Positions 1 to 24,964 of a DNA stretch of 64,000 bases are shown here, piece by piece (positions within the stretch are counted from its first letter, which is position 1; each line of letters begins with the position of its first letter). The translations under genes were made by a program, and so were the position numbers. This DNA comes from an uncultured bacterium. GTDB lineage: Bacteria; Oederibacteriota; JAAXVQ01; JAUVAV01. Under the pieces are notes generated by a model. It was not told where the DNA came from, did no database searches, and was given only the letters and a program-made list of their open reading frames with translations. Where the stretch lies: the NCBI GenBank assembly GCA_963710755.1, contig CAVQBK010000004.1, forward strand, positions 32,001 to 96,000, read 5' to 3'.

Positions 1-3000
1 ATCATCCGGCTCTGAAAGCGGTGGCCGGGAATCAAGCCGGCGCCATCAAGGCCGGCCAACCCATTGCGGTGGACGGCGCCTTCGGCAAAGTTAATTTTGT
101 TGATAACGGCAACATCCTCCTTCAGGTCAATCATGATGGTAACGACAAGTTTACGGGCTACAGTATACGTGGTACCGACAAATACCATGGCATTGTTCTG
201 GCCGGCGCAGATAAAGTAGGAACCCATCTGCTCGCCCAAAATATTATAGTGCCCGTAGGAGTGAACCATCCTGCTTTGACAGCATCTGCTGGAGATCAAG
301 CCTCAGCTATCAGTCGGGGACAATTGGTCAGCGTTGTGGGCGCTAATGAAAGTGCTGTGGATTTTACCAATAAGGGCACCATCCTGATCCAGGTTAACCG
401 CGACGATAACGGCAAGGTTAGTGGCTGGGGACTTAGGGGTGTTGATCAGTATGGGGATACCATTGTCACTGCAATAGGTAAAGGCGGCCATTTGGAAATG
501 AAAAATGCTTTAATCCAGGTCGGCAGCCGTAATCCTTTATTGGCCCAAGCCGTTGGGAACAAGCAGGCCGGTGCTTTCCAAAAAGGCAACACAACAGTCA
601 ATCAAATGGATGGTGTGGACGGCCCGGTGGCTTTTGCCAAAGATCACCAGATTGTTATTCAAACCAGCCGCGATGATCAGGGTATTAAATACAGTGTTTT
701 AGCTCATTCGGTAAAAGATCCCAGCGTGATGCTTATTGCTGGCCTGGATGGCAACCAATCTCTGGGGTTATCAGCGGCTATTGGATCGCGCTCCAGTTTG
801 ATAGGCGTAAATGCGGCGAAAACCATTCTGGACAAATTTGACGAAAAGAGCCATACCGCTGTTGTGGATGGGCAGAACCTTGATTGCCAGAATGATGAGG
901 GCAACGTCGTGGTAAATATTGGCAAGAGCGATGGTGAAATCACTTACAGTGTCAGAACCACCTCTGCCCAAAATTCCAAGGTGACCTTCATCGTCGGTCA
1001 GAATGACAAAAAAGGTATTCAAATTACCGATGGTATGGGTTCCCAAAAAGATCTGGTGGCCCTCGGTGTTGCTGTGGCGGAATTCAAGCATGTGGATGCG
1101 GCCACGGGTACCACCGAAGCCGCCGTGATTGACGGGACTACGGGCAATAAACAGGTCTTTGAAGTGAGGGTGATTGGTGAGAACGAGCAGGTTCACGTAC
1201 GCTATGGCCGCACCAAGGACGGCGTATTGACCTACGGCTTGTTGGGAACATCCACCAAGTTTAAAGATGTCACGATCATGACCGGCATGGACAGCAAAGG
1301 CCGCAGCATGATGGTGCAAATGGCCAAAGGCAATCAAACAGATCTGGCGCTTTTGGGCATGCCCGTCAACGCACTGCTGACGGCCAATCAAAATGCACCG
1401 ATGGGCAAAGCTCGTCAAATTTTGGCTGATGCCAATCATGAGTATACCATTACGTTTGGTGAAGATGGGTCGCGTACCCTTAATGGTTATGCCCAAGTCT
1501 ACAGCCGGACGGACAAGGGTTATATGGGGCATCAAATCCAGGCTTTCGGAACCTTGGATAAAGACGGGAAATACACCTTTGGCGCCAAGGGAACAAACCG
1601 GGAATTGGAGGCCTTAGGGTTTGATCTCAAAGCGTTGGTGATGAAAAACCACAGTTTCGGCCGTGAAAATGCCTTGGTTTTTAACAGCCGGGTATTGACC
1701 ATGCTGGATACGGGCGATCACCAAATTCTTCAGGGCAGAACCATCAGCGGGGAAGAAGCTTCCTTGTCGTTGGACACGATTCATAACACTTTTTCCGCGT
1801 CCCGGACCATTACGCAAACCATCAACGGTCAGGAAGTGGCCATGCGGCTGGATAGAGATGAGCATGGCAGCATGGTAGTGACCATCAATGGACAACAGTT
1901 TGCCATGGCTGATGGATTAAAAATAAGTGCCGCTTCCGGGGACTATAACGGCATGATCCAGCTCGAAAGCGGCGACATGAAAAAATATATTACTTTACAA
2001 GGAGATGAAAAAACCGGGTTCATACAACGTTGGAATAACAAAATTTACGAGGCCGCCCATCAAATTGCCGCTGCTTGGAATGATAGAGTGAATAATGCAA
2101 ATTCAGGTCAATTTACATTTTTTGATAATTTAGCGGACAGTATGGCCTTTACCGGGGCTGCCTTCACAGCAGGAATAGCGATGCTGACCTCTCCCCTCAC
2201 AGGGGGATTAGATGCGGTTGCTGATAATTACTTGAAGGAACATGAGAATTGGGCAGCAGCAACAGCTTATGTGGCTTGTAAAACCGTTTCAGAACAAGCG
2301 CCCATCATTGGAGCCATACTCCTGGGACCGGCCGGTGGCACTGCTCTTATTGGTTCGGGAATATTGATGGAAATGAAGCCCGTCGTCAGCGGCGGCGGAC
2401 TTGGAGATTTTATTAAATCAGCCGGTTCATCGCTGCTGGTGACAGGTAATAATTTCTTTGTGCAACCGTTTATTATAGCCAAGGATGCCCTTGTCAATGT
2501 ATGGACCGGCCATGGCGAGGAAGCCTTGTCTTATTACGGACAAGCAGACCGTTATGTCCAACTGACCGGCGCTCTGGTACAAGTGGCGTTTGCTTTCACT
2601 ATGACCAGAAGTTATGGTAAAGCCTTGATTGATGGAACCACCATGCTGCGCTTCAGACTTTCTGAAGCGGGCGAAGCGTTTAAAAATACTGCAGGCAGCA
2701 GTGCTTTATTGGCAGCTGGTAAAGCCCTCTTCCAGGGTGTTTCTCCCGTCAATTTTTCATCAGAAGCGATGACGGCGGCCAAGGAAATTATGAAAAGCAA
2801 CCACACTTCATCTACGAAGTTTGAGGCCCTTAAGGAGTTAAGAGCCGGTAAAGATCCGGAAGCCGTGATAAAGGCAGTGGATGCCATTCAGAAGCCGCCA
2901 ACGATAATGAACAGAGTGGCCACTGCTTTGAAGCTTAATGAAGGCCCGGTGGCCAACGTCGTGGAAACGGCAGGGCGCACCGTGAGAACGGTTACCCGGG

Positions 3001-6000
3001 CGGTTGGCTCAAGCGTTGAAAAAGTGGTCAATGTCGTTAAGGCTGCCTTGGCACCTGTGGGTGATGGCATTGTCCATTTTGCCGCCAGCAGCAGGGACGT
3101 TGTCATCAATCAAGTCGTTAAAGTGGTTCAAGCAGTGGGAAAAGTCCAAGGTATAAGCGCGCTGGCCTCGGGCATTAAAACAGTAACTGCGGTAGTGAAT
3201 GGGTGGAGTGCGGCGCTCAGCAGCACTGCAACCCAGGTAAGCGTGGCCATTAAAGTATTCGCCATGAATGCGGCTTCCGGAATAAGCACAACCGCGGCTA
3301 ACTTAATGGCCAACTCCAACCCGGCGTTGAGCAAGATGTTATCCAATTTGTCCCAGCAATTGGAAAATGGCGCGGCAAAGATGCAGGAACAAAGCAAGCT
3401 GACCCTTGAATCCAAGACCGAAGGTCAAACCAGCCGAGCCGAAGCCGGCTTGGCGAAATCCTTTGAAGAGAAAATCACTGCAATTGAAAGCAATTTTGAA
3501 AAAGCTGGCACGATCTTTGAACTGTATGAACAAGGTGCAAAATTAAAATCCGCCATGAACGCTTATGGAAATTTCCTGGCCATGAGCGGTAATGCTGATC
3601 TGGTTCTAAATAAAGTACAGGCATTGACGGAGCAAGGCCACGGAGGCACAGCGCAAATTCTCGAAGGCGTGCTGCAAGTCCGCGCCGATATTGCCGGCAA
3701 AGTTATTGAAAGCATCAAAGGGACAGAAGCCGGCCATGCGGTTATTGCAGCCTTGGGCAAGAACATCGCTCAGAATGGGCCAATGGCGGCCGCCGTGCTG
3801 GCCAAGGAAGGCGTCTCGGAGGATATCGCCGGTGCCGTGGTCAAAGCAGCCTGTGCCAATCCCGGGAACACGGCGCAATTTGTAAAAGCCTTGACCCACA
3901 ATACGGACGCCATGGTTCAAGCCGTACGCGCAGCCGACCCGGTAAGCGCGGCCAGCATGGCTGATGCCGTATTTTCATCGGTTAAAGGCAGCACCAGAAC
4001 CACGGCGGCCATGAAACAGATGGCCAATGCCATGGCCAAGGATTCTGCGGTGGCCGGCAAGGTTGTTGATATTGCGGCCGCCGGTGACCGCGGGTTTATG
4101 CGGGAAAAAGTGATGGAGTTGTCCAAGGAAACCGCCCAATTGGAAAGCAATTTCCTCGGCGCCTTAGGCCAATCGCCCAAAGCCATGGCGGCGTTCATGC
4201 AGCAGGCAGCTCAAGGGCGTTACGGCCAGCACCGGGCGGAAGCCTTCACCAAGCAAGTGGCCAAAGATCCCCAAACCAGCCGTCAGATGGGCAAACTATT
4301 GGATTCCGCCAAAGCTAATGCGCAAGGCAGGTTGGTGAGTCCCCGCACGGCTGAGCTCTTCAGAAACACGATCGCCGATCAATTGGCCCGGAATCCGCGA
4401 AGCGAACCCATGCAAAACCTTTTAAAACAGTTTTCCGAATCAGGACAAAGGCAAATTTATAGGCAGTTGACCAATGATCTTGCCCGGGATCCGGTTAAAG
4501 CAGAGAATTTTAAAGACGCCGTGGTAAAAGATTTAAGAAAGGCCATGAAAGGCATAGGCGCGCCTAAGGTGGAACTTAATGCCAAAATAGAAAGACTGAC
4601 CGATCTGACACCCAAAGCCGAAGGAAATGTGAAAGCCGACGCTGCCCAAGGTCAGGGTCAAGGGAAAGGCCAGGCTGACGCCAATAACAGCACTGAACCC
4701 AACTTTGTCAACGAAGTGGTTGCAGCCTTAAAAACGGTTATTGACAACATGACAGGCAAAGCCAAAACCTTCAAGGAACCGGGTGCTTCAGGCTATAGGG
4801 CGCCATTCAGCCTGGCAGGAAGCAGAACGATGGAAGCTTTGCGAACCGATCCGCTGCAGGCTGCCTATGAATTCACCAAAACCATTTCCGGATTGCGGCT
4901 GGTGGAAGGCACGGCCAAGGCTATAGGCCAGCTTGGCAGTGGAACGGCCAAGCAATTCCGAGAAGCTTATTATAAAAATCAGCTCGAAGGATCGACGCAA
5001 GGATTACGTCAGGCTTTTGAAGCCAACAATAAAAGTTTGGAGACCCTGGATGCCCGCTTGGAGGCCATGGCTTTAAAGAATCTTCGTTCCCCGGGCGTTG
5101 ACAACCGTTTGTTTAACAAGCTTCAAAAAGGTATGGCCCAGCGGCAAGAGTTGAAAGCCCGGCAGGAACAGTTGTTAAAAGTGGCGGAGGGAAAAATTGA
5201 AGAAGCCACGTCAACCGTGGGGGAAATAGCAAGGTTAAAACTAAGCGCCCAGGAACTTCAAGCAGCCAATGAGGCAGGCCAGGCATATGATGCGGCGGTT
5301 AAAGCTCTGGAAAGCAAGGCTGAAAATTTTAAAACGATCGAACAAGCACAACGTCAAGTGGAAGAATCCGCGCTTGCTGAAAATGGCGGGCAGGCGCAAG
5401 CATTACCGGAAAAGGTGAAATCCCGGATCGATGCCTACCGGGTGTCTTTGGCGGAAGCCGCTTTTGAAGTGAATGCAGCCCGTGAGGAAGCACAAACCGA
5501 ATTAAATCAAATGTTGGCCAAGCCTGAGTTAGGCCAACGGCTGGGTGAACTAATGGTTCAAGAAAGCGTGGCCTCTTTGGGACGTCAAGCTGTTCAGGCC
5601 CAAGCACGGGTAAAAGGTAACTATGCCGAAGCTTACCGTGCGGCTGTGGCAAGGCCTGAAGAAGCGTTGACAAGACAAGCCAAACAAATTGGATCCCAGA
5701 TCGAAGGAGTAGAACGGCAAGCGCAACGCGCAGCCGGCCGGACCGAATTGAGAAGCCGGCAGCAGCAGGCGCGCCTTGAGAACCGGATGGCTTTGCAACG
5801 AGAATTGGCAGCCACCCAGGAACGTCTGGATACGCTTGACCCCACGAGCGAACAGGCTAAGGAACTCAAATCCCATCAAGACAGGCTGGAAACGCAGTTG
5901 GCGCGTCTTGATCGCGCCGACCAACGGGAGCTGCAAAGAGCCCGGCAAAAACAGCAATTGGAAAAGCGTGGGGCGCAATTGCAAACCCGGATCGCGAATA

Positions 6001-9000
6001 AGGATACGTCTCTTTCCCATCAAAGCCGACAGGCTACGCGGTTGATCGAGGTCAAAGCGCGGGAAGAGAAGAAGGCGCCTTTTGCCGAGGCGAGAAGCCG
6101 GCAGCAGCAGGCACGTCTTGAAAGCCGGCAGGCCCTGCAACATGAATTGGACGAAACCAAGAAACGTTTGACAATGCTTGACCCCTCCAGCCGCCAGGCC
6201 AGGGATCTCGAATCGCACCAATCCAGAATAGAAGCTCAGTTGGAGCGCCTTAATCGCGCCGACCAGCGGTATCTCCAAAGCGTCAAGCGAAACCAGCCAA
6301 TGGAAAACCGTTACAGAGAAGCTATTTATCAAGAATTGGCTGCACTGGAAGGTGCCAGGGCCCGGTTGCTGAAAAGAGCCGAGCAATTTGGCCAATTGAA
6401 GACCTTGGCCGAAACCTTGCTGTCCAAATCAGCGGCTGAATTGCAGAATCAGGATTTGTATGATTTCACGGCCAAGGTAATGGAACAACTTCCCATCAAG
6501 GATCAAACCGAATTGTTCCGGGCTGACAAGAACCATCATCTCGAAGTGATATCCCGCATGAGTTCCGAGGGCGCCCAGGCCTTGAGCCGGGCCTTGACCA
6601 AAACAGAAGCCCGGGCCTTGATGGATGCCATGCTGGAAATGGGCCGGGCTTACGACGAACAAGCCCAACAGCAATCAACGGCAATGGAACAAGGACGCTT
6701 GCGGGACATGGCCAAAACGTTTTACAGCAAAGCCGGCGATTTGTTGGCCGGCCGGCCGGCTAAGGAAATCATGCAATTAATCAATAACCCTGCCTTCAAA
6801 AAAGCCGCGGAATCAAGCAATGCCACTTCGGTTCAAGCGGCACTTATGTTGCATGGCAAACAACCTGTCTCAAGTAGAATGCTGCGCACCGTGGAATCCT
6901 TTGCCGATTACCTCCTGCAACAGCCGACCACCATGTCCTTTGATACGGTGTTGAAGAATTTTGGAGAATCCCGGTCCTGGTTCCAGCGGCTTCGCACTGA
7001 CAGCACGGAAGCCATGGTCAAAGCCTTGAAATTGGAGCCCCGAACCCTGGAGCAACAATTAACCGCACTGGATGAACTGGCTTCCGAACCGGCCAAAGCC
7101 TTTAAAAATCAACTTATGCAAGGCCGGACAGCGGAACACCAAGCCCAGTTGGAAAAAGCTGGGGCAGAAGTGGATAGGCTTAAAAGCGAGGTAGCCAGAA
7201 TTGAAAATGCCCGGCAAAAAGCGGTCGAAGAGAGAACCGCTTCGGAGGAAGCTTACCAGGAAACCTTGACTCAAACCAAGGCCGAACTGGCCCAGGCGGA
7301 AAGCAATTTGGAAGCCTTGAAGTCTAAAGAAGTGAAATTGGCTGACAGCAGCAGCGATCTGGCCAAGGCGCTCGAAGCTTTTAATGCCGAGCGGAGCAGC
7401 AGCGGTCAGGCCGTCTTAAGTGAAAAGGATATTTTACTTGAGAACCGGGATGAAGCGAGGGAAAACGCCATCAGTCAAGTCACCTCACAGGCTAGAATCA
7501 ACGCCCAAATGAAGCTGATGGACAACAAGGGCCGATTAAATGCTCTGCGTGCGCAATTAACGCAACTGGAAAAGGCCCAGGCATTTAAGCCCAGCCTGAG
7601 CAACCAGGTTCAGCAAAGCATTTTAAAATTTAGAATCAACAGGCTTAATCGCCAGGTTGTCAACGCTGAAAACCGCTTTACCAATTTTGCGGAATTGCCC
7701 CTGCCCAATAACTTGGAGGTACGCCGCTTAGCCAACACTTTTGCTCTGGAAACTAATCTCGATGTGGCATTGCAAATGGAAAAAATTCATAAACGTTTGC
7801 AAACTACGGCCGAAGCAGACCGGGCGGCCCTTCTGGAAAAAGAGGCAGCCATGACGCCTGAAGGTTTCAAAGAGTGTTGGCCCTATTATGAAAAAGTCTT
7901 GAATGAAGCAAGTAAAGATGCCATCAAAGACCTTAATGATGACAATCAAGCTTTTCGGCGTCAGCTCATGAGCGCTCTGCCCAAGGGAATCACCAATGGC
8001 CGGCAACTGTACGATGCCTTTAAAACCCTTCGCGAAGGTATAATCAAAAACGGGGACATTCAGGAAGGATCGATTCGTGATGCACGTCTCATACGCGTTT
8101 ACAGTGAAATTGCCTTTACCCGTGTAACTGGTTTCGATAACATCCGATTGGCCCAGAAAATAATGTTGAATTCCTTTTTCGGGCAACAAAACGTTGGGTT
8201 GGCTGCTGGCGGTGGTAAGACCAACATATTTATTATGATGCATATGCTTGGCATCATGAGTGGCGGAACCCTGCGCGGCGAAATTCTGGTTGATGATCCG
8301 GCAGCTATCGAAAAATACAAAACGGAAATGCAAAATACGGGGCTTAAACAGGGAGACTTGGCCGAAGCCTTGGGCTTGGAATTGGTCAATGGCAATGCCT
8401 TGCACAATGAAGGACGTTACCGGGAGCTGGAAGCAGCCTTGAACAGCTCCGACAAAATTGTGATCTTTGACCATATTACCCGTGCCCATTTAAGAAATGC
8501 CGAAGTCAGCAGCTCCAGTTTACGGCAGGCTTTGCAACAAAGCAACTATGTTGGGATTGATGAAGTTCATATGGCCGCGACTTCGCAAACGTCAGCGATT
8601 ATTGGCGGCGATATTGCCAAGCCTAGAGCGGCGTTGGTCCGGAAGGTAGATCAATTACTGAATGAACTGGGCTTCGAACAGTCAAATTTTAAAGCTCAAG
8701 TGGAAGCCGGGAAATTACCTCAATTGCGCAATGGATTTGAAGTGATCGACCACCGTGGTAAGGAACTGACCGATGATCAGATGGTGGAGTTCAACCGTAT
8801 GACTGGTAAAAAAATCATTTTGAGCGATGGGCAGATAAAACTTAATCTTGCAGCCCAGACGGCATTGAGAGGATTTACGGAGGGACAAATATCTTCTGTC
8901 CTGCGCACCCTTTATAGCAAGGTTGGAAAAGCCGGAGAATATATTTCCTATGCCACCCTAAACGGTAATATCTCGCCGGTCAATAGTCTGGGTAAGATTG

Positions 9001-12000
9001 AAGAATCCCAGATCAGCAATGATATTGCCCACCAAATTACAGCTGCGCGTATCAATGGATTGGATCCCTTTGATGCCGTGAGGGTAAATCACACCAAAAT
9101 GCAAACTTCCATGTCCGCCATGTATGCCGGCAATCACGGCGCTCACCTTGTTGGTGCATCCGGTACTATTGCCGGCATCGAAAGTTTGATGAAAAGTAAA
9201 ATAGGATCTTCTGCTCGCCACGTCAGTACTTCTATCTTTGATATCAAATCCATGATTGAAAACACGGCCATGGATGCGGATACCAAGGGGCGGCTTTTAA
9301 CGGACAGTCAAGCCGATCTTGCAATAGCTGATACAGCCCTATTTAAAGGGCTAAAACAAGGGTGGGACGGGTTTGTTGCAGAAGCCGATCCTGTCAAACA
9401 ACTGGAATTGGTCAAAGAATATGCTAAAAAAGCACAAAATCAGGGAATGGACGACACGATCATAAGCGTGATCGGTGCTGAAGGCGCGGGCTTCTATGTG
9501 CGCGCAGGTAAAGGTCATGAAATGCTGAAAAGTAAAGCTTTCCAGAACCTGTTGAAAGCAGCTGAAGTTCCGGCAGAAAATGCCCGCGAGGCTACCAGTA
9601 AAGTTCAAGGTATGGACTATATTGAAGTCAAAGATGGTATTCAAGCTGTGGTTCAAAGTCATAAAGCAACACCGGAAGCAGGTAAACAATATCTCAAAGG
9701 ACCGCAGATCACCATTGCCAATGAGCAAGCTTTTGTGGGTAAGAATTTCCAGAACAAATTTACCATGATCTTTAGAAATGTTCAGAACTATACAGCAGAT
9801 ATGATCACTCAAACCTTACTGCGTACCGGCCGGCCGGGCGGGGAAAGAGCAGATGGACGGTGGTCCACGTTGCGGTTTGCGGTGGTGAATGAAGCGGAAC
9901 TTGGCAATGTGGTGGAACAGGCCAAGAGACGTGGTAATGAAATCAAAAGTCTCCTTGACTTGAGCAAAACCAATGATGCCACCACTGCGAAAATTCTGGA
10001 TAAGACAGATCTAAACCTTGGTGAAATGCTTAAACTTGGAGCAGAATACCGTCAGTTAAAATTGGTTGGTGATGCCACCAGGTTCGCAGTTCAGGATACG
10101 TTCCGTGATTTGATATTGATCGATCCACTCAAAAAAGCATTAAGGGGAGTAACCGAAGGCAGCCAGGCCCACAAGATCCTTGATAACGAATTGTCCATAA
10201 CCTTAAACCGCAGTGCTGAAGGTGCTGATATCAAACTTCGGTTGCGTGGTAATCAATCTCCTGAAGAGCTTAACAACAAATATGTCAGTGATAATTTTAA
10301 CCGTAATTTGAGAGCTGCCAACGGAGTATGGTTTAAAATTTTAGGCAAATCAATTGTACAGGGTGCCTGGAAAACCAGTGGCAAGGCCGTGGAACAATTA
10401 TGGACCCAATGGCAGGCTTCGCGGGCAGTGAAAAATGGGCGGGTACCGATGCGCAACACCTCCACCAGTTTCGCCGAATATAAATCCCTGGCCGATCTTT
10501 ATCAAATAGGCAAGAACTTGATGGCCAAAGTATTATCAGAGGAAACGCAAGGCGCTGAAGCCGGTGCGCTGGGTCAACAAACCGTGACGATTGCCAACAA
10601 TGCCACCGTGACGTCCATCAGCAGCAAAGAAATGAAAACGTTAAAATCAACATGGGAACAAGCTCACAGTCAGGTCGAAAATGCATTTAAAGCGGCCAAT
10701 CCACTTGACTACTTGACTGGTAAACAAAATGGCGAAAATCCACTAGCAGCCATGTCGTTGAGTGCGGCCATGGGCATATTACATACGAACGATCAATTGG
10801 AAGCGCAAATGGCCATGGCGCCCAGCTTTAATGCGGCGTTCAATCAAATGAAAGATAATTTATATCAGCCCCTGCGGGCCCAAGCCTTGGGCGAAAAAGC
10901 TGGTATGGGAGAGCGGGTTAACTATAATCCGGCTTTGCTGCCTGAACCTTCTCAGGCGCTTATTAACCTGAATCAGTCCTCGCTGTTGTCCAGATTAGCC
11001 AATCTGCCTGGATTGGCGGGCGTGGTCACAAATTATAATAAACGGGATTTGGAAATCAATTATATTGGGGACCAAGCTACTGCAGTTTTAAATCAATATA
11101 ACAATCCTGAATGGGGTAAAGTCCATCAAGAAGAAGTTAAAGCCTACCAAACCCAATACGGTGACAACTGGCAGGCCATTGTCCTGGCCAACCAATTCGG
11201 ACCGGACATCACTTTGGTGCAGCAATACCAGCAAACCACTAATCCCTTGCGGCGGTTGTGGCTGGGCATGCAAATGCCGGCCCAGGCCAATAAGCTTTAT
11301 CAAGAACTCATGTCCGATATTGCCAAAGTCGCCGCCAAGCTCAGTGTTTTCAAGAACAACCCCAACGCGACCTTGACCTATCAGAACCGGACCATGAATG
11401 AGCAGCAAGCCCGGGCTTATATGGTGGAGCGCATGGATCAGGCTGCTTCGCTGTCAGGGCGCTATCAATTGAAAAATACCGGATTGATTAATAACTACCA
11501 GTCTGACGTGAGCACTTCTCCCCAGAAGGTGGTTCAAGCAGCGCTGAAGGAAAAGGGCAATGTGCAAAGCTTTGGCAGCAATACGCTTCAAGGTATCGCT
11601 CAACTGGCCAGCACCGTGAAGCTCACCAGCATTCCCTGGATCAAGGCTCATCCTATCCTGGCTGGCACTCTGGTGGGCAGCACGATTTTGCTAGCCGGCT
11701 TGAACCTGGCAGGGCTCACCCTGCTAACCATGACATGGGGATCATTTTTTACGGGTGGGATCACCGGTGCAATGAACAGTTTTGCAAAAGCAGAACCGGT
11801 CTCGAGAAATGCCAAGGGACCTATGGCGATAATGCAAAAATACACGTCCGGGAAAAAAGGAATGCTAGCGAAATTAATAACACCGGCGATTTTTGTAATT
11901 TCCGGTAATTATGTTGGCCTATTGGGCATTATCTTCAGTACTACGCTTAGGTTGGTCTATGATATCGGTAAGGGCAAGATTACGGCCACCCCTATTAAAG

Positions 12001-13832
12001 AAGACGATGTGGTGGTCAATCTGAATCCGGCTGGTGAGAACAACCAGGAAGGCCTGGAATCTCAGCAAGTGCTAAATAGCACTGCTAATATGGCCAGTGG
12101 TAAAGCTAAGACCATTATGCAGGCCTGGCAGGAAGAAGTGGCCGGCCGGGAAAACAGCGGCAAAGCCGTGGAGGCCTTGCGCGGTATCCTGCAAAACACC
12201 TTTGGCGTGGCCTTGACGGTCGGCAACAAAGCCAAGGATCTTGCCTACATGCGCCTCATAGCCGCCTTGATGGATCTGATACCGGCCATTGCGGTGACCG
12301 GCCAGGAAGCCATTCAGCCCAAGGTCTATCTGACCAAGGCTGTTAAAACCAACGGCAACCGCAAGGCCGGCTTGTGGTTCATTGCCTTTGCCGCCAAGAA
12401 ACCGGGATCGGGGGCGGAAGCCTCAGAAGTGGATATGGAAATTCCCGAATCGGAAGTGGCCATGCTCAACCGCAGCCTGGGGGACATGATGATCCGCCAG
12501 GCCTTGATCGCCGCGGTGGAAGTGCTTTTCCAGGACGGGGAGGTGGGCAGCCTGGAAACCGCGCTTATCAACTCCGATCCTTCTTTGGGTTATGCGGGCA
12601 ATGCCAACCGGGTCATTGAATTCTTGAGAAGTTACATCATGGACGGCGCCAATCTTAAACGCACTATTGACGAAATTCGCGCGGATGAAGCCGCGGGCCA
12701 CAGCCTGCGTTTCCGTGATCAACAGTTGCTTCAGGCCTTTGATATGGTGAGCGCCAAATTTGGCGGGGCCACATTCAGTGCCAATGACCTGCGCGATCTC
12801 AACCAAGCCAAGGCCGAGTTGGAAAACGAGGCGTTCGCCCAGATGGCCGTTCAGGCGCAGGCCATTGATGCGGCTAAAGCCCAAGGGAAAGATATCCAGG
12901 ACCTGTGGGGTACCTTTTATGCCCAGTTTGGCATGAGCTATGGCGACTATGAAACCATGAAAAAAGAGCCGGTGCCCCAAAAAGTACTGGAGTTCTTCTT
13001 CAATAAAGATAATCTGGCCCAAGACCTGCCTATGGCCAATGTCAAGCGGGCTGCCATGCGGTTGATTGGTTTCAGCGCGATAGGCGCCATCTTGGGAGGC
13101 GTGGTCGTGGGCTTGTTCCTCGGCACCGGCGTGGCCGTGGTGGCCGGCGCGGTTCTGGTGACCGCCGGCTTGGCAGGATTGTTTGAAGGGCTTATGGCTA
13201 TGGCCACAGCCAGTAAAATCGCTTTCCGTCTCAATCCCTCAGCCGCCGTTATGGAACAATTGGGCAATACCAGCTTTGACTCCCGCACTGTAGAAATGGA
13301 AGCCGGCCTGATGGAGGTGGAGAAAGCGCTGCCACAGGACCGGACGGCAGCCGAGGCCAAGTTCCAGCAATTGTACGGCATCAGCACCAGGGATTACGGC
13401 AAAGTCAATCTGATCAACCTCATGAAGAACCCGCTTTTTGTTAATGCAGTAGAGCACCTGCGGCCTGAAGGGCAGACTTTCATGATCTCTGAAAATAATC
13501 GCGATAGTGCAGTGCAGGAATTGCTGGCCTTCCTGCTCACCGCAGTGCGCAGCGATGCCAGGAAAGAATACAAGATCGCCGTGATTCAGGATGTGGCCAA
13601 GATTATGGCCTTCATGCAACTAGACATCAACGTGAGCGTGGCCAAATTCAAACCCGGGCTGGAAGTCACCTTAACCCCGGAAGTGGAACGGCTGGTCAAT
13701 CCACGGGTGGCCACACCCAAGATGGAACGGATGATTAACGGCCTCAGTGAATTCGGGATTAATATTAAGGGCTTGTTCGTGCCCTTCAACCAGCGTCATC
13801 AACGGCTCAAAGGTGCCGGTAGCGCGGCTTAA
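1..13832 (+). CDS. Giant (>4600 aa, 5'-truncated) multidomain membrane protein: beta-rich N-terminal repeats, hydrophobic segments, long coiled coil, embedded SecA-like ATPase, shared C-terminal domain
   Basis: Frame is open from base 3 (HPALKAVAGNQAG...), so the GTG at 21 is not the true start. SecA-like motifs GLAAGGGKT, IDEVH, GASGT, ITIANEQAFVGKN, QTLLRTGRPG. Ends ...QRLKGAGSAA and is followed by a terminator. Confidence 0.9.
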   Translation, partial: HPALKAVAGNQAGAIKAGQPIAVDGAFGKVNFVDNGNILLQVNHDGNDKFTGYSIRGTDKYHGIVLAGADKVGTHLLAQNIIVPVGVNHPALTASAGDQASAISRGQLVSVVGANESAVDFTNKGTILIQVNRDDNGKVSGWGLRGVDQYGDTIVTAIGKGGHLEMKNALIQVGSRNPLLAQAVGNKQAGAFQKGNTTVNQMDGVDGPVAFAKDHQIVIQTSRDDQGIKYSVLAHSVKDPSVMLIAGLDGNQSLGLSAAIGSRSSLIGVNAAKTILDKFDEKSHTAVVDGQNLDCQNDEGNVVVNIGKSDGEITYSVRTTSAQNSKVTFIVGQNDKKGIQITDGMGSQKDLVALGVAVAEFKHVDAATGTTEAAVIDGTTGNKQVFEVRVIGENEQVHVRYGRTKDGVLTYGLLGTSTKFKDVTIMTGMDSKGRSMMVQMAKGNQTDLALLGMPVNALLTANQNAPMGKARQILADANHEYTITFGEDGSRTLNGYAQVYSRTDKGYMGHQIQAFGTLDKDGKYTFGAKGTNRELEALGFDLKALVMKNHSFGRENALVFNSRVLTMLDTGDHQILQGRTISGEEASLSLDTIHNTFSASRTITQTINGQEVAMRLDRDEHGSMVVTINGQQFAMADGLKISAASGDYNGMIQLESGDMKKYITLQGDEKTGFIQRWNNKIYEAAHQIAAAWNDRVNNANSGQFTFFDNLADSMAFTGAAFTAGIAMLTSPLTGGLDAVADNYLKEHENWAAATAYVACKTVSEQAPIIGAILLGPAGGTALIGSGILMEMKPVVSGGGLGDFIKSAGSSLLVTGNNFFVQPFIIAKDALVNVWTGHGEEALSYYGQADRYVQLTGALVQVAFAFTMTRSYGKALIDGTTMLRFRLSEAGEAFKNTAGSSALLAAGKALFQGVSPVNFSSEAMTAAKEIMKSNHTSSTKFEALKELRAGKDPEAVIKAVDAIQKPPTIMNRVATALKLNEGPVANVVETAGRTVRTVTRAVGSSVEKVVNVVKAALAPVGDGIVHFAASSRDVVINQVVKVVQAVGKVQGISALASGIKTVTAVVNGWSAALSSTATQVSVAIKVFAMNAASGISTTAANLMANSNPALSKMLSNLSQQLENGAAKMQEQSKLTLESKTEGQTSRAEAGLAKSFEEKITAIESNFEKAGTIFELYEQGAKLKSAMNAYGNFLAMSGNADLVLNKVQALTEQGHGGTAQILEGVLQVRADIAGKVIESIKGTEAGHAVIAALGKNIAQNGPMAAAVLAKEGVSEDIAGAVVKAACANPGNTAQFVKALTHNTDAMVQAVRAADPVSAASMADAVFSSVKGSTRTTAAMKQMANAMAKDSAVAGKVVDIAAAGDRGFMREKVMELSKETAQLESNFLGALGQSPKAMAAFMQQAAQGRYGQHRAEAFTKQVAKDPQTSRQMGKLLDSAKANAQGRLVSPRTAELFRNTIADQLARNPRSEPMQNLLKQFSESGQRQIYRQLTNDLARDPVKAENFKDAVVKDLRKAMKGIGAPKVELNAKIERLTDLTPKAEGNVKADAAQGQGQGKGQADANNSTEPNFVNEVVAALKTVIDNMTGKAKTFKEPGASGYRAPFSLAGSRTMEALRTDPLQAAYEFTKTISGLRLVEGTAKAIGQLGSGTAKQFREAYYKNQLEGSTQGLRQAFEANNKSLETLDARLEAMALKNLRSPGVDNRLFNKLQKGMAQRQELKARQEQLLKVAEGKIEEATSTVGEIARLKLSAQELQAANEAGQAYDAAVKALESKAENFKTIEQAQRQVEESALAENGGQAQALPEKVKSRIDAYRVSLAEAAFEVNAAREEAQTELNQMLAKPELGQRLGELMVQESVASLGRQAVQAQARVKGNYAEAYRAAVARPEEALTRQAKQIGSQIEGVERQAQRAAGRTELRSRQQQARLENRMALQRELAATQERLDTLDPTSEQAKELKSHQDRLETQLARLDRADQRELQRARQKQQLEKRGAQLQTRIANKDTSLSHQSRQATRLIEVKAREEKKAPFAEARSRQQQARLESRQALQHELDETKKRLTMLDPSSRQARDLESHQSRIEAQLERLNRADQRYLQSVKRNQPMENRYREAIYQELAALEGARARLLKRAEQFGQLKTLAETLLSKSAAELQNQDLYDFTAKVMEQLPIKDQTELFRADKNHHLEVISRMSSEGAQALSRALTKTEARALMDAMLEMGRAYDEQAQQQSTAMEQGRLRDMAKTFYSKAGDLLAGRPAKEIMQLINNPAFKKAAESSNATSVQAALMLHGKQPVSSRMLRTVESFADYLLQQPTTMSFDTVLKNFGESRSWFQRLRTDSTEAMVKALKLEPRTLEQQLTALDELASEPAKAFKNQLMQGRTAEHQAQLEKAGAEVDRLKSEVARIENARQKAVEERTASEEAYQETLTQTKAELAQAESNLEALKSKEVKLADSSSDLAKALEAFNAERSSSGQAVLSEKDILLENRDEARENAISQVTSQARINAQMKLMDNKGRLNALRAQLTQLEKAQAFKPSLSNQVQQSILKFRINRLNRQVVNAENRFTNFAELPLPNNLEVRRLANTFALETNLDVALQMEKIHKRLQTTAEADRAALLEKEAAMTPEGFKECWPYYEKVLNEASKDAIKDLNDDNQAFRRQLMSALPKGITNGRQLYDAFKTLREGIIKNGDIQEGSIRDARLIRVYSEIAFTRVTGFDNIRLAQKIMLNSFFGQQNVGLAAGGGKTNIFIMMHMLGIMSGGTLRGEILVDDPAAIEKYKTEMQNTGLKQGDLAEALGLELVNGNALHNEGRYRELEAALNSSDKIVIFDHITRAHLRNAEVSSSSLRQALQQSNYVGIDEVHMAATSQTSAIIGGDIAKPRAALVRKVDQLLNELGFEQSNFKAQVEAGKLPQLRNGFEVIDHRGKELTDDQMVEFNRMTGKKIILSDGQIKLNLAAQTALRGFTEGQISSVLRTLYSKVGKAGEYISYATLNGNISPVNSLGKIEESQISNDIAHQITAARINGLDPFDAVRVNHTKMQTSMSAMYAGNHGAHLVGASGTIAGIESLMKSKIGSSARHVSTSIFDIKSMIENTAMDADTKGRLLTDSQADLAIADTALFKGLKQGWDGFVAEADPVKQLELVKEYAKKAQNQGMDDTIISVIGAEGAGFYVRAGKGHEMLKSKAFQNLLKAAEVPAENAREATSKVQGMDYIEVKDGIQAVVQSHKATPEAGKQYLKGPQITIANEQAFVGKNFQNKFTMIFRNVQNYTADMITQTLLRTGRPGGERADGRWSTLRFAVVNEAELGNVVEQAKRRGNEIKSLLDLSKTNDATTAKILDKTDLNLGEMLKLGAEYRQLKLVGDATRFAVQDTFRDLILIDPLKKALRGVTEGSQAHKILDNELSITLNRSAEGADIKLRLRGNQSPEELNNKYVSDNFNRNLRAANGVWFKILGKSIVQGAWKTSGKAVEQLWTQWQASRAVKNGRVPMRNTSTSFAEYKSLADLYQIGKNLMAKVLSEETQGAEAGALGQQTVTIANNATVTSISSKEMKTLKSTWEQAHSQVENAFKAANPLDYLTGKQNGENPLAAMSLSAAMGILHTNDQLEAQMAMAPSFNAAFNQMKDNLYQPLRAQALGEKAGMGERVNYNPALLPEPSQALINLNQSSLLSRLANLPGLAGVVTNYNKRDLEINYIGDQATAVLNQYNNPEWGKVHQEEVKAYQTQYGDNWQAIVLANQFGPDITLVQQYQQTTNPLRRLWLGMQMPAQANKLYQELMSDIAKVAAKLSVFKNNPNATLTYQNRTMNEQQARAYMVERMDQAASLSGRYQLKNTGLINNYQSDVSTSPQKVVQAALKEKGNVQSFGSNTLQGIAQLASTVKLTSIPWIKAHPILAGTLVGSTILLAGLNLAGLTLLTMTWGSFFTGGITGAMNSFAKAEPVSRNAKGPMAIMQKYTSGKKGMLAKLITPAIFVISGNYVGLLGIIFSTTLRLVYDIGKGKITATPIKEDDVVVNLNPAGENNQEGLESQQVLNSTANMASGKAKTIMQAWQEEVAGRENSGKAVEALRGILQNTFGVALTVGNKAKDLAYMRLIAALMDLIPAIAVTGQEAIQPKVYLTKAVKTNGNRKAGLWFIAFAAKKPGSGAEASEVDMEIPESEVAMLNRSLGDMMIRQALIAAVEVLFQDGEVGSLETALINSDPSLGYAGNANRVIEFLRSYIMDGANLKRTIDEIRADEAAGHSLRFRDQQLLQAFDMVSAKFGGATFSANDLRDLNQAKAELENEAFAQMAVQAQAIDAAKAQGKDIQDLWGTFYAQFGMSYGDYETMKKEPVPQKVLEFFFNKDNLAQDLPMANVKRAAMRLIGFSAIGAILGGVVVGLFLGTGVAVVAGAVLVTAGLAGLFEGLMAMATASKIAFRLNPSAAVMEQLGNTSFDSRTVEMEAGLMEVEKALPQDRTAAEAKFQQLYGISTRDYGKVNLINLMKNPLFVNAVEHLRPEGQTFMISENNRDSAVQELLAFLLTAVRSDARKEYKIAVIQDVAKIMAFMQLDINVSVAKFKPGLEVTLTPEVERLVNPRVATPKMERMINGLSEFGINIKGLFVPFNQRHQRLKGAGSAA
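3..790 (+). repeat. Tandem 88-aa (264-nt) coding repeats at the start of giant protein 1
   Basis: HPALKAVAGNQAGAI (3), HPALTASAGDQASAI (267), NPLLAQAVGNKQAGAF (531), each followed by IL/VIQ(V/T)x(R/H)D. Confidence 0.85.
5751..6290 (+). repeat. Internal duplication (~65-aa unit, 342-nt spacing) in the coiled-coil region
   Basis: RSRQQQARLENRMALQRELAATQERLDTLDPTS...RADQR at 5751 and RSRQQQARLESRQALQHELDETKKRLTMLDPSS...RADQR at 6093; DNA agaagccggcagcagcaggc occurs at both. Confidence 0.9.
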
Positions 13833-14026: not shown

Positions 14027-14647
14027 TTGATGATGAGGATTTCCAGGCAATGGTGTTATCTTTTTGTAATCACAGCAAGTTTTGGTCTGGTGGGATTGAG
14101 CCATGCCCAAAATGATCAAGCCTGGATTAAAAAACACCTGAAAAATAAAACCTGGGAGTACCTGGCCAACCAAACCTCTTCCACGCTGGTCACTGCCCAA
14201 CGCTTGCTCCTACAGTTAAACCAAGCCAAGGATGTGGCTGCAAAAAAACGGCATCCAACCCGGCAGCTGAGCCATGGTGATCAGGAAACCTATCATTACA
14301 GCCGGTCCGGCCAAGAGGTATCGGTTTGGGTTACCGGGCCCGATCAAAAAATGATCGAAGAGCGAACCTATAGCGAGCAGCGTCTCGTCTCCATTCTATA
14401 TGCGGATGGCACCTTAAAAACATTTCAATATCCTCCGGAGCAAGGCGACCGTCAGTCCTCCTTAGCCTGCACCATTGTGGTCTATGCCGATGATCAGACC
14501 CGGTTGTTTCAATACGATGGGGAAGGCCAATTACGCCAGGCTTTTCAGGCAAACGGCGATTCTATACCCTTGGGCAATTTAATGGACTTTCATACGCTCA
14601 ACAATCTGGTGGACCCTGCCTGTCTTCGCCTGGGGGGCACTCCATGA
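14027..14647 (+). CDS. Secreted hypothetical protein with YD/RHS-like beta-hairpin repeats
   Basis: Signal-peptide-like N-terminus (…GLVGLSHA); YADGT, YADDQ, YDGEGQL motifs; overlaps next gene by ATGA. Confidence 0.7.
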   Translation: MMMRISRQWCYLFVITASFGLVGLSHAQNDQAWIKKHLKNKTWEYLANQTSSTLVTAQRLLLQLNQAKDVAAKKRHPTRQLSHGDQETYHYSRSGQEVSVWVTGPDQKMIEERTYSEQRLVSILYADGTLKTFQYPPEQGDRQSSLACTIVVYADDQTRLFQYDGEGQLRQAFQANGDSIPLGNLMDFHTLNNLVDPACLRLGGTP

Positions 14648-17181
14648 ACCGCCTACTGACCATTAACTTTTTGGCTTTAATGTTGGCAGCTTCGGCTTTG
14701 GCCGCCGGGGTTTCGGATAAGGAAAAAAATGCGGCGGTGGTGTACCATTATTTGGAGTCCCGTTATTTGATCCAAGGATATAACTTGGAGCTGGGGGATC
14801 CGCATTTTCTGGCCACCTTTACCCTTGGCAACCAAACCCGTTTACTCTACGGCAACGATGGCTCCCTGTATAAGAGGACCATGCCTTCAGGGGAACAGAT
14901 ATTTTATGATCAAGGCTTTCCTGTAAAGCGGCTTGGAAAAAAAGACGAACTGATTCAGGAAACCCAACTGACCTGGGATGAGCAGCACCATCTGCAACAA
15001 GCCCTAACCAGAGGCGCTCAGCAACGTACGCTAAGGTTTTATTCGCAGGGATATTTGACGCTGGAAATGGATTATGGGCCGCCTCATTTGCTCTTCCGTC
15101 GCGGGTTTAGCCGTTCGGCTGATAAGAAAAGTATAAGTTATTTTGAAACCGACAGTCTTACCGGTCTTACCAGCTATTTTCTGGTGCCGGAAGATAAAGG
15201 ATTGCAGATTCAGCAATGGCGGGTGACCGGAGGGCTTTACCGTCTCTGGGACAGGCCCTACCACCTTTTTATGGACTTGGTGCGCGAGGAAATTAAACGT
15301 CAGTATGGAGATTTCCAGCGACAACGCCGTGATTCCTTCAATCGCACCAGGGGCGAAATAATTGTGGCTCAAGTAGACCAAAACTTGGCCTATGGGCTGG
15401 GCCGGTTCTTAAAAGATCGGGATAGGGGCGCCATCACCTTTGATCCCCAGGGAAACTATATTGAATGCCATCAATTAATCGTGCCCTTACCCAAAGTGGA
15501 CTTGAAGGAGCTCCCCCATAAACCGCCGGTGAAGGTAATCGTCAAGCATAATCAGTTGTTTTATTGGAATAAGGATATTAAAGACTGGCAAGTTTATCCC
15601 TATAATCCCAACCAAGAAAAAATAATACCCCTGAACCCGGAGCAAGCGTTGGTGGAACCAAAGGAAATTAAAATGCAGTGGCAGGTAGTGCCGCATCAGC
15701 AGGAACAGTTGGTCCTCAGCTGCCGGCTGTTACTGACTCCGGAAATTAAACAGCGCCTGAACGCCCGGCTGCATGAGGCTGCGTTTTATGAACCCGATCA
15801 GGATGATTGCCGGCAGTTGGTCTCTGAGCTTAATGCCGGCCGGGAGGAAGCAGCCCGCGCCCGGCAGGTCCATGCGCTGGCAGGGAGCCGTCCTTGGCGT
15901 AAGGAAGACATCGATCTGATCGAGCCGCTGCAAGTTATGCTCAGCGCCAGGATTAAACAAGCCCTTTTAGTCAGGCCGGAAATGAAAATTCGCGATGACC
16001 GGCATTTGACTCAGGCCCAAGCCATGCTGGCGTCCATTGAACCGATGCGGGTGCTTAACCGTCAAAGCCTGGAGCGGCAAAAGAGGAAGATCAGGATCGC
16101 TACTCTGGGCACCTTGACCAGAATTATTTATAAAGATTTGGAAATTCAGTTGCCCAAGATGAAAAAAAACAAGCTCTTTTATTACTATAACCGCGTAAGA
16201 AAGGATAAAGGGTTTTTGCAAGTTTGGGAGGAAGACCAGGAATTGGCGGAGAAGGGGTTCTGGCGCGCCTATGTGCTTAGGCCCGACCGGGATGTGCTCA
16301 TTCAACGCCGCCATAAGATGCTTATTCGTGTGGACCAAGGCCGCTTTCTTTGGCAGGCCACCGGACAGCGGGTTACGGAGCGCCTGTCGGGTACAGTGAT
16401 TTTGGCCAACCCCAATGCCCCGGCCACGAACCAACCGGAAAAAAACCATGACCAGCTGTGGACAACACCACCTCAAGTTTTTCCTCATCAGCGGGCACTG
16501 TCTTTGCAGGCATGGTTGCCTATGCTGCTGTATAAAAACAGGAAAAAGGCAATCACAGTCACCGAGCCTAATGACGCTCGAGTGACCAGTACCACCACTT
16601 ATAATTGGCTGGGCAAGATTAAGGACGTGGTGGTGAAAAAAGAGCTGAAAGATCATAACTGGCAGATAGAGCGTTATGATCATGATCAGCAGCTGCAAGA
16701 ATTACAGAACAGCCTTGGCCAGCATTATCATTTGTTCTATCGGCAACCACAGTTGGTGGAGCTGGTGCAGCAAGAGGGTAATCAGGAAAATCATTTTTTA
16801 GTTTCGCAACGTCAATTGCAGCGCATGATTTTCCCCAAAGGGCGCATGGAGGTGACCCGGGGGCCGGGCCAAACGCTGCAGGCCGATTATCAGGATCGGG
16901 CCGGACGGCAACTTGTACGTCTGAGGTTTGATAAGCACGGTCAAATTAAAAAAATAAAACTGGCCCAAAAGACAGAAGTGATTTATACCATGCACGATCT
17001 TGACGTTACTCTGAATATCCAAAATGATCACGGCCAAGTGGCTCTGGCAAAATTTAACCGGGCAGGGGAAATGGTGTTGCAGGAAGGTGAAAAAGGCTTA
17101 ATTAACTTCGTTTTTACCAATTATCCTTTTTTTAATCCTCAACATCTTGAAAAAATTTACCGACAAATCGTTTTAAATTGA
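14644..17181 (+). CDS. Secreted 845-aa hypothetical protein with YD/RHS-like repeats at both ends
   Basis: Signal peptide MNRLLTINFLALMLAASALA; YGNDGSL, YDQGFP, WDEQHHL, YNWLGKI, YDHDQQL, FDKHGQI, FNRAGEM; translationally coupled to upstream gene. Confidence 0.75.
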   Translation: MNRLLTINFLALMLAASALAAGVSDKEKNAAVVYHYLESRYLIQGYNLELGDPHFLATFTLGNQTRLLYGNDGSLYKRTMPSGEQIFYDQGFPVKRLGKKDELIQETQLTWDEQHHLQQALTRGAQQRTLRFYSQGYLTLEMDYGPPHLLFRRGFSRSADKKSISYFETDSLTGLTSYFLVPEDKGLQIQQWRVTGGLYRLWDRPYHLFMDLVREEIKRQYGDFQRQRRDSFNRTRGEIIVAQVDQNLAYGLGRFLKDRDRGAITFDPQGNYIECHQLIVPLPKVDLKELPHKPPVKVIVKHNQLFYWNKDIKDWQVYPYNPNQEKIIPLNPEQALVEPKEIKMQWQVVPHQQEQLVLSCRLLLTPEIKQRLNARLHEAAFYEPDQDDCRQLVSELNAGREEAARARQVHALAGSRPWRKEDIDLIEPLQVMLSARIKQALLVRPEMKIRDDRHLTQAQAMLASIEPMRVLNRQSLERQKRKIRIATLGTLTRIIYKDLEIQLPKMKKNKLFYYYNRVRKDKGFLQVWEEDQELAEKGFWRAYVLRPDRDVLIQRRHKMLIRVDQGRFLWQATGQRVTERLSGTVILANPNAPATNQPEKNHDQLWTTPPQVFPHQRALSLQAWLPMLLYKNRKKAITVTEPNDARVTSTTTYNWLGKIKDVVVKKELKDHNWQIERYDHDQQLQELQNSLGQHYHLFYRQPQLVELVQQEGNQENHFLVSQRQLQRMIFPKGRMEVTRGPGQTLQADYQDRAGRQLVRLRFDKHGQIKKIKLAQKTEVIYTMHDLDVTLNIQNDHGQVALAKFNRAGEMVLQEGEKGLINFVFTNYPFFNPQHLEKIYRQIVLN

Positions 17182-24753: not shown

Positions 24754-24964
24754 ACGGTTTAAGTTTATTATATTCAATGTTTATTAAGGATTACGTTTGA
24801 AGCGATTTTCGAGACATTGAATTTTTAAAATCGGATTTTTTATTATGAAACAACACAGCTGGAAACATTCCTAAAAAACGTTTTAAAATGAAATGGCCAT
24901 TGGAAAATGGCCAAATTTAAAGCTATATTTTATAGACTATAGTTTGTGTTATGGAGGCTCAATC

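Follow-up and report, generated by a model that had tools for sequence, protein, structure and literature searches.

We describe here a candidate protein export motor built into a giant protein of an uncultured bacterium assigned to Oederibacteriota. The DNA analyzed, referred to as the window, is a 64,000-nucleotide stretch (positions 32001-96000) of contig CAVQBK010000004.1, hereafter C4, from assembly GCA_963710755.1, a genome of 3.44 Mb that is 98% complete. A single open reading frame (ORF) on the + strand encodes a protein of 8,125 amino acids, and within this protein lies an 800-residue ATPase module (8040..10439, +) that, judging from its predicted structure, is very probably of the SecA type and not an ordinary helicase. 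We give about even credence to our preferred reading taken as a whole, mechanism included, in which this module is tethered at the membrane as part of the giant protein and drives polypeptide export. Proteins of this kind have already been published. What is new, by comparison with the main texts of the preprints discussed below, is a separate family missed by all SecA models, its occurrence in another lineage, the lack of a fused SecY, and a retained long helix after the motor.

The original prediction, which had been made from the sequence of the window, placed a SecA-like translocase ATPase inside a membrane protein of >4,600 amino acids. The embedding in a giant protein held, and the size was corrected to 8,125 amino acids; the term membrane comes from a crude Kyte-Doolittle hydropathy scan alone, as do all hydrophobic segments reported here. 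Within the window, the ORF extends over 3..13832 (+), is open from the first bases, and runs off the 5′ end. This portion holds 4,609 codons, the C-terminal part of a single ORF of 8,125 codons (24.4 kb) whose first 3,516 codons are located upstream of the window (C4:21455-32002). The GTG start is at C4:21455 (position 9455 of the upstream locus L003), and an ATG follows two codons later. The module comprises residues 6196-6995 of the complete protein. Hydropathy revealed an N-terminal signal-like segment at residues 36-54 (center ∼45), a four-segment cluster at residues 868-1141 (centers 877-1132), and one more segment at ∼2817. The next ∼4,500 residues have no hydrophobic segment, and the module falls within that stretch, preceded on its N-terminal side by a coiled-coil stretch of ∼1,600 residues that is helical and partly repeated. 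Four C-terminal segments follow (residues 7401-7419, 7475-7493, 7596-7614, and 7883-7901, centered at 7410, 7484, 7605, and 7892; window 11655..13157, +). The first of these is 415 residues downstream of the module, and the C-terminal region that carries the four segments keeps 25 to 30% identity in relatives.

The evidence for a SecA-type motor comes foremost from predicted structure. We aligned the window region with 13 homologous cut regions (alignment A1; 14 sequences, 20 to 50% identical) and used A1 to model the 800-residue module with AlphaFold2 (predicted local distance difference test [pLDDT], 74.0; predicted template modeling score [pTM], 0.70). The model displays two alpha/beta domains, an inserted domain at residues 186-352, a 43-residue helix at residues 660-702, and a hairpin at residues 741-798. 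The two alpha/beta domains are RecA-like nucleotide-binding domains that, in model and alignment, bear Walker A, DExx, motif III, and the arginine-finger motif VI. In a Foldseek search of 350,542 PDB chains with the whole module, every row shown, from rank 1 to rank 30, was a SecA or SecA2 chain (E values from 5.1e-13 to 7.4e-6); the first non-SecA match was a RecQ core (E value of 1.0e-5). The SecA identity put forward in the original prediction was supported by predicted structure, whereas Pfam, PDB sequence, and profile searches returned no SecA match. In a wider structural search, SecA (2fsf_A) aligned over 464 residues (model 6-778 to chain 55-829) and SecA2 over 463 (model 10-775), compared to fewer for the helicases (177 to 349 residues, with 409 for Hel308). 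The SecA alignment extends to model residue 778 and chain residue 829, past the long helix.

The inserted domain was also examined separately. When folded alone from a separate 13-row alignment taken as DNA references (pLDDT, 79.2; pTM, 0.76), the insertion had structural matches only to SecA preprotein cross-linking domains, and SecA chains had the highest TM-scores in the Foldseek listing for this domain. Since the insertion on its own resembles the cross-linking domain, the domain found at the SecA position is predicted to have the fold of the SecA insertion, in agreement with the original prediction that an insertion between the DEAD box and the GT motif occupies the place of the SecA preprotein cross-linking domain. 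Overall, the module resembles housekeeping SecA (6itc_A, 1tf5, and 2fsf_A) in having two RecA-like domains, a cross-linking-type insertion between motifs II and III, and a long helix after domain 2. The GxGKT, DEVx, (S/T)GT, and Q..R.GR motifs appear in the same order as in SecA, and SecA is the best Foldseek family. Unlike housekeeping SecA, the module matches no SecA Pfam family, has DEVH in place of DEVD, and is embedded in an 8,125-residue protein. The host genome also encodes an ordinary SecA of 880 residues (C1:204807), whose cysteine-rich tail the module lacks.

All five motifs named in the original prediction are in frame on the + strand of ORF 3..13832, where that prediction had placed them. 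The first half of nucleotide-binding domain 1 (8148..8594), delimited by A1 conservation and the model, contains NVGLAAGGGKT (8190-8222, with the Walker A sequence GGGKT at 8208-8222) and YVGIDEVH (within 8547-8609, with DEVH at 8559-8570). The insertion with the predicted cross-linking-domain fold (model residues 186-352; 8595..9095) is followed by the second part of domain 1 (9096..9239), which carries MQTSMSAMY...LVGASGT (motif III), with LVGASGT ending at 9167. Nucleotide-binding domain 2 (9240..9887) has a variable middle, then ITIANEQAFVGKNF (9708-9749; 9702-9749 with the preceding PQ), and then motif VI, QTLLRTGR (9810-9833), as part of QTLLRTGRPGG...STLRF (within 9795-9887). The 43-residue helix (10017..10145), seen in the model secondary structure, stands where SecA has its scaffold helix and carries the family-wide motif RFAVQDTFRD..I.PLK, in which F682 is invariant in the A1 consensus (mean column conservation, 0.49). 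The terminal helical hairpin (helices 741-774 and 777-798; 10260..10439) is kept in the close subfamily only, according to model and alignment. All of these features are on the + strand.

Conservation across A1 follows the catalytic parts of the module. Invariant residues include G59 and K60 of Walker A; D174, E175, and H177 of the DExH box; G372 and T376 of motif III; G567; and Q591, R595, and R598 of motif VI. The insertion that separates the DEVH box from the GASGT motif (∼167 residues) has invariant residues of its own (G309, P313, D328, and A336). Mean column conservation was 0.47 to 0.55 in the motor cores and long helix versus 0.31 to 0.32 in the linkers. The invariance of the catalytic residues across A1 indicates, at the level of sequence, that the motifs are not due to chance and that they mark a genuine family in which selection maintains an active ATPase.

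This family is small. When 1.84 billion representative proteins were scanned in full with HMMER, 34 relatives had an E value of ≤1e-3; 26 of these are ≥1,000 residues long and 13 are ≥3,000. Similarity to the relatives is concentrated in two blocks, one covering domain 1 with the insertion and the other covering domain 2. One distant member is a database "hypothetical protein" labeled Elusimicrobiota. We sampled 61 genomes of the phylum, of which 5, all of one order, contained the module at strong E values and one more matched at chance level. The five genomes contain the module in eight places, six of them in open frames of 6,778 to 8,131 residues and two in frames of 4,268 and 1,773 residues near contig position 1. 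Hydrophobic segments were found 220 to 415 residues after the module in the four close homologs scanned that extend that far, and ∼700 to 880 residues after it in five homologs of intermediate distance.

A second kind of giant frame, 1,773 to 13,678 residues long and in some cases cut by contig ends, occurs within the same bacterial family, in five genomes. Each of the five has a full-length SecY domain (Pfam positions 1-305 of 306; E values of 1e-40 to 4e-49) followed ∼100 residues later by a Pfam-positive SecA_DEAD domain, so that channel and motor are fused in one chain, alongside the housekeeping SecY and SecA of these five genomes. The SecY-SecA modules are located at G045:C19 24115-27651 (−; L048), G025:C1 65118-67079 (−; L049), G041:C297 2071-4029 (+; L050), G057:C62 3729-5672 (+; L051), and G053:C13 2182-4137 (−). 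SecA_PP_bind scored over its cutoff in the G045:C19 giant, which also gave a weak P-loop_SecA match, and scored weakly in G053:C13. The SecA-like module of these giants aligned to SecA with 99.7% hhalign probability. The giants of this second kind resemble the present type in bacterial family, giant frames, and a SecA-type motor; unlike them, with their Pfam-positive motor preceded by SecY, the present type has no SecY-like part. The two kinds co-occur in G045 and G053, and the host genome of the window has no SecY-SecA frame. A protein homology search with the L048 module returned nothing at an E value of ≤1e-10, in a search that is weak owing to a word filter and a 5,000-residue limit. The fusion was not found in the main text of two giant-protein preprints or among the matches listed in a literature full-text search.

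Under our preferred reading, the module would be cytoplasmic and held at the membrane by the giant protein's own hydrophobic segments ∼400 residues downstream, where it would consume ATP in moving unfolded polypeptide across the membrane. Because no channel of its own was detectable in the giant, the channel would most likely be housekeeping SecYEG. An export function would match, by analogy, the published hypothesis for other giant proteins. The original prediction proposed export of this protein or its paralogs or, alternatively, action in a target cell; none of our findings relates to the latter.

A number of our results weigh against this reading, and many of them concern the SecA identity itself, for which sequence methods reach no further than a generic SF2 (superfamily 2) ATPase. 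Neither the 4,609-residue part nor the region itself matched a SecA family in Pfam (the SecA_DEAD PF07517 cutoff was not reached), and at an E value of ≤1 no SecA model matched any of the 14 A1 members. At an E value of ≤10, SecA_PP_bind (PF01043) and P-loop_SecA (PF21090) matched no giant of this type in the five genomes; the same scans did match housekeeping SecA and the G045:C19 giant. The A1 profile found nothing significant among PDB sequences (subthreshold RecQ at 0.49 and NS3 at 0.61, and no SecA). The family hidden Markov model (HMM), run against the 7,094 open frames of at least 100 residues in the host genome, matched only the module itself. By hhalign, a 35-row family alignment reached 21% probability (P = 1e-3) against a 29-sequence SecA profile, pairing Walker A through IDEVH...AIIGG with GEGKT through VDEVD...PLIISG, and the family reached 28.7% (P = 6e-4) against the Pfam-positive giants. 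In piecewise comparisons with SecA, there was no sequence signal in the insertion (P = 0.39) or in the C-terminal helices (P = 0.57). The motor motifs alone gave a signal (P = 4e-4 and 0.04, versus P ≥ 0.16 for reversed SecA controls). The insertion alone yielded no Foldseek match at an E value of ≤1e-3, with SecA chains at ranks 2 to 7 (E values of 0.23 to 0.6), and both structural models were built from shallow alignments (14 and 13 rows) with middling confidence. The remaining adverse points bear on the export mechanism. The membrane topology of the giant is predicted from hydropathy only and is not established, and in five more distant family members the crude scan detected no hydrophobic segment C-terminal to the module. 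The module lies ∼6,200 residues from the N terminus and would be of no help for cotranslational export of the N-terminal parts of its own chain. Being made after ∼6,200 residues, it could be of use only to later parts of its own chain, in posttranslational export, or to sister molecules. A SecY-like channel inside the giant was considered and rejected (hhalign against a SecY profile, P = 0.49 for the C-terminal and 0.18 for the N-terminal membrane part), no second SecY was found in the host genome, which has a single SecY, and no conserved partner genes were found beside the giant.

Several more comparisons were made, some of them serving as leads. Searched against PDB sequences, the region gave 0 matches at an E value of ≤10, and the A1 HMM did not match the Pfam-positive giants at an E value of ≤10. 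The SecA_DEAD scan of the whole host genome found housekeeping SecA and a weak helicase-like frame only. Alignments by hhalign to single sequences (the organism's own SecA, PriA, and ClpB) were uninformative. As a lead and not a test, alignment by eye with the organism's own SecA places IDEVH..TSAIIGG opposite VDEVD..RTPLIISG, TIAN..A..G opposite TIATNMAGRG, MQTSMSAMY...GASGT opposite TFQNYFRLY...GMTGT, and SNDIAHQITAAR, with SNDI.HQI.AAR, opposite SDGLHQALEAKE. Also as a lead only, the ten best named clusters by language-model features were all SecA_DEAD families (top score, 0.93; 187 of 256 features), and the nearest clusters were stand-alone SecA_DEAD/PP_bind proteins of 547 to 815 residues. 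A language-model search with the C-terminal 1,130 residues returned a best score of 0.77 and no family.

What else could the module be? One potential explanation, which we consider somewhat unlikely although it deserves to be taken seriously, is that a SecA-derived ATPase no longer moves proteins through SecY and that the ATPase and its peptide-clamping insertion have another job in the giant, such as holding on to a polypeptide partner or unfolding it, or serving the ∼1,600-residue coiled-coil stretch as a conformational switch powered by ATP. This explanation accommodates the SecA-type fold and the catalytic-residue conservation equally well. The failure of every SecA Pfam model, wing and scaffold included, the C-terminal helices without sequence signal to SecA, the absence of a channel domain or export partner nearby, the distance of the module from the N terminus, and the distant members without predicted membrane segments after the module all speak in its favor. 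However, the cross-linking domain is not known to have a role other than clamping a translocating polypeptide, which weighs the other way. In other giants of this bacterial family, a SecA-like module is joined directly to SecY, pointing to translocation as the task of such modules, and in the close subfamily hydrophobic segments lie within 220 to 415 residues after the module.

A nucleic-acid SF2 helicase or translocase of the DExH type with an unrelated insertion, in which the SecA likeness would derive from the common RecA cores only, seems improbable to us. In the wide structural search, the RecA cores of the module matched SF2 helicases with the highest Z scores, a result that we read as rigid superposition rewarding the compact two-core unit common to SF2 enzymes and penalizing mobile extra domains. 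Weak Pfam matches to ResIII, T1R_D3-like, Helicase_C, and DEAD were present in A1, in one member each. None of the searches revealed an accessory helicase domain; the extra domains of the module match SecA. Unlike the module, RecQ and other SF2 helicases (4tmu_A and 8yrs_A) have no cross-linking-type insertion, and they align with under half of it. The least probable alternative in our estimation, with very little to recommend it overall, is a decayed motor relic without enzymatic role that has only a structural, spacer function within a fast-evolving giant. Such a relic would be in keeping with the extreme divergence from every SecA model and with the fast evolution of giant-protein domains described in the main text of West-Roberts et al. 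2023 (10.1101/2023.11.21.568195). Yet the ATP-binding and hydrolysis residues are all invariant across 14 sequences that are otherwise 20 to 50% identical, and conservation is highest in the motor cores and the long helix. A more far-reaching version of our preferred reading, membrane-tethered export by a SecA-type motor, is that the module, together with the conserved membrane segments on its C-terminal side, makes up a private export machine without SecY. We think this doubtful at best. If true, it would be a SecA-derived motor coupled to a new kind of channel built into its cargo, and multi-thousand-residue segments of giants would be threaded across the membrane.

Published systems provide several points of comparison. 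According to the main text of West-Roberts et al. 2023 (bioRxiv 10.1101/2023.11.21.568195), divergent SecA DEAD and preprotein-binding domains are present in most full-length giant proteins; the SecA-like domains lack scaffold and wing, occur next to a normal SecA in the same genome, and may export the giant itself in Omnitrophota, Actinobacteria, and others. Among Omnitrophota giants, the main text of a 2026 preprint describes a SecA_DEAD architecture cluster of 20 proteins. The present protein is like the giants of West-Roberts et al. in having a SecA-like motor in a giant with hydrophobic segments (by the crude scan) and a normal SecA in the genome. Unlike those giants as set out in that main text, which were found by HMM, the present module is matched by no SecA HMM and belongs to a lineage related to Firestonebacteria; whereas their domains have no scaffold or wing, the present model is predicted to retain the 43-residue helix after the motor. 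For the C-terminal part, there was no Pfam match to the scaffold, wing, and two-helix finger of SecA (SecA_SW), and the model has the conserved 43-residue helix and the hairpin in this part. Kamneva, Poudel and Ward 2015 (PMC4452313) report stand-alone secondary SecA_DEAD proteins beside type I secretion-like genes. Like those proteins, the module is an extra SecA-type motor beside housekeeping SecA that lacks most or all of the wing/scaffold Pfam domain. In contrast to their separate proteins, it is a domain of a giant and has no type I secretion-like neighbors.

The surroundings of the module offer additional observations. Directly upstream of the giant gene is an ORF of 391 residues with no known family (L003:8283-9458, +). 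Because it ends 4 bases inside the GTG start of the giant, the two may be translationally coupled; used as a query in five related genomes, this ORF was not found. Directly downstream are three large + strand ORFs of 845, 2,462, and 2,196 residues (14644-17181, 17365-24753, and 24893-31483) that match no Pfam family. These ORFs are not similar to the giant and are not its paralogs, and in two related genomes the surroundings of the giants showed no counterparts and no synteny. Beyond the giant-gene cluster, a few genes further downstream, are ClpB (31822-34410, +) and two subtilisin-family (S8) peptidases (34682-36268 and 40852-42531, +) that bear FlgD_ig/CHU_C-type C-terminal domains; S8 peptidases have been suggested as processors of giant proteins in the main text of West-Roberts et al. 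2023 (10.1101/2023.11.21.568195).

Repeats were observed within the giant itself. In the long helical stretch, a direct repeat beginning RSRQQQARLE (window 5751-6083 and 6093-6311, +) is 62% identical over 73 residues, and a weak third copy is located further along. At residues 3342-3694 (window 3-536, +, continuing upstream into L003) are at least four tandem copies of an ∼88-residue module of the HPAL...NF..G.I..QVNRD type, 31 to 54% identical and of no known family. A six-frame scan of the host genome revealed 53 stop-to-stop frames of at least 1,500 residues, some of which may be antisense shadows, and among these only the giant of the window has the SecA-type module. Examples from the 53 are a frame of 9,474 residues at C3:1247244 and one of 6,830 residues at C1:2, a contig start. 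A search of sequencing runs found the window in two DNA runs of one soil-metagenome study (shares of 0.38 and 0.05), with no RNA run among the matches listed.

How proteins of many thousand residues are exported is an open question in bacteria, and built-in SecA-like motors are the main published clue. Our data suggest that such motors exist in forms that HMM surveys miss: with only 34 relatives among 1.84 billion proteins and no SecA Pfam match in 14 regions, domain censuses of giant proteins undercount their motors. A family that has all of the catalytic residues together with a predicted peptide-clamping domain offers a compact, testable, soluble module of 800 residues. Finally, the three forms present in one bacterial family, namely, the normal SecA, the SecY-SecA fusion in giants, and the diverged form without SecY, provide a natural series on what a tethered motor needs.

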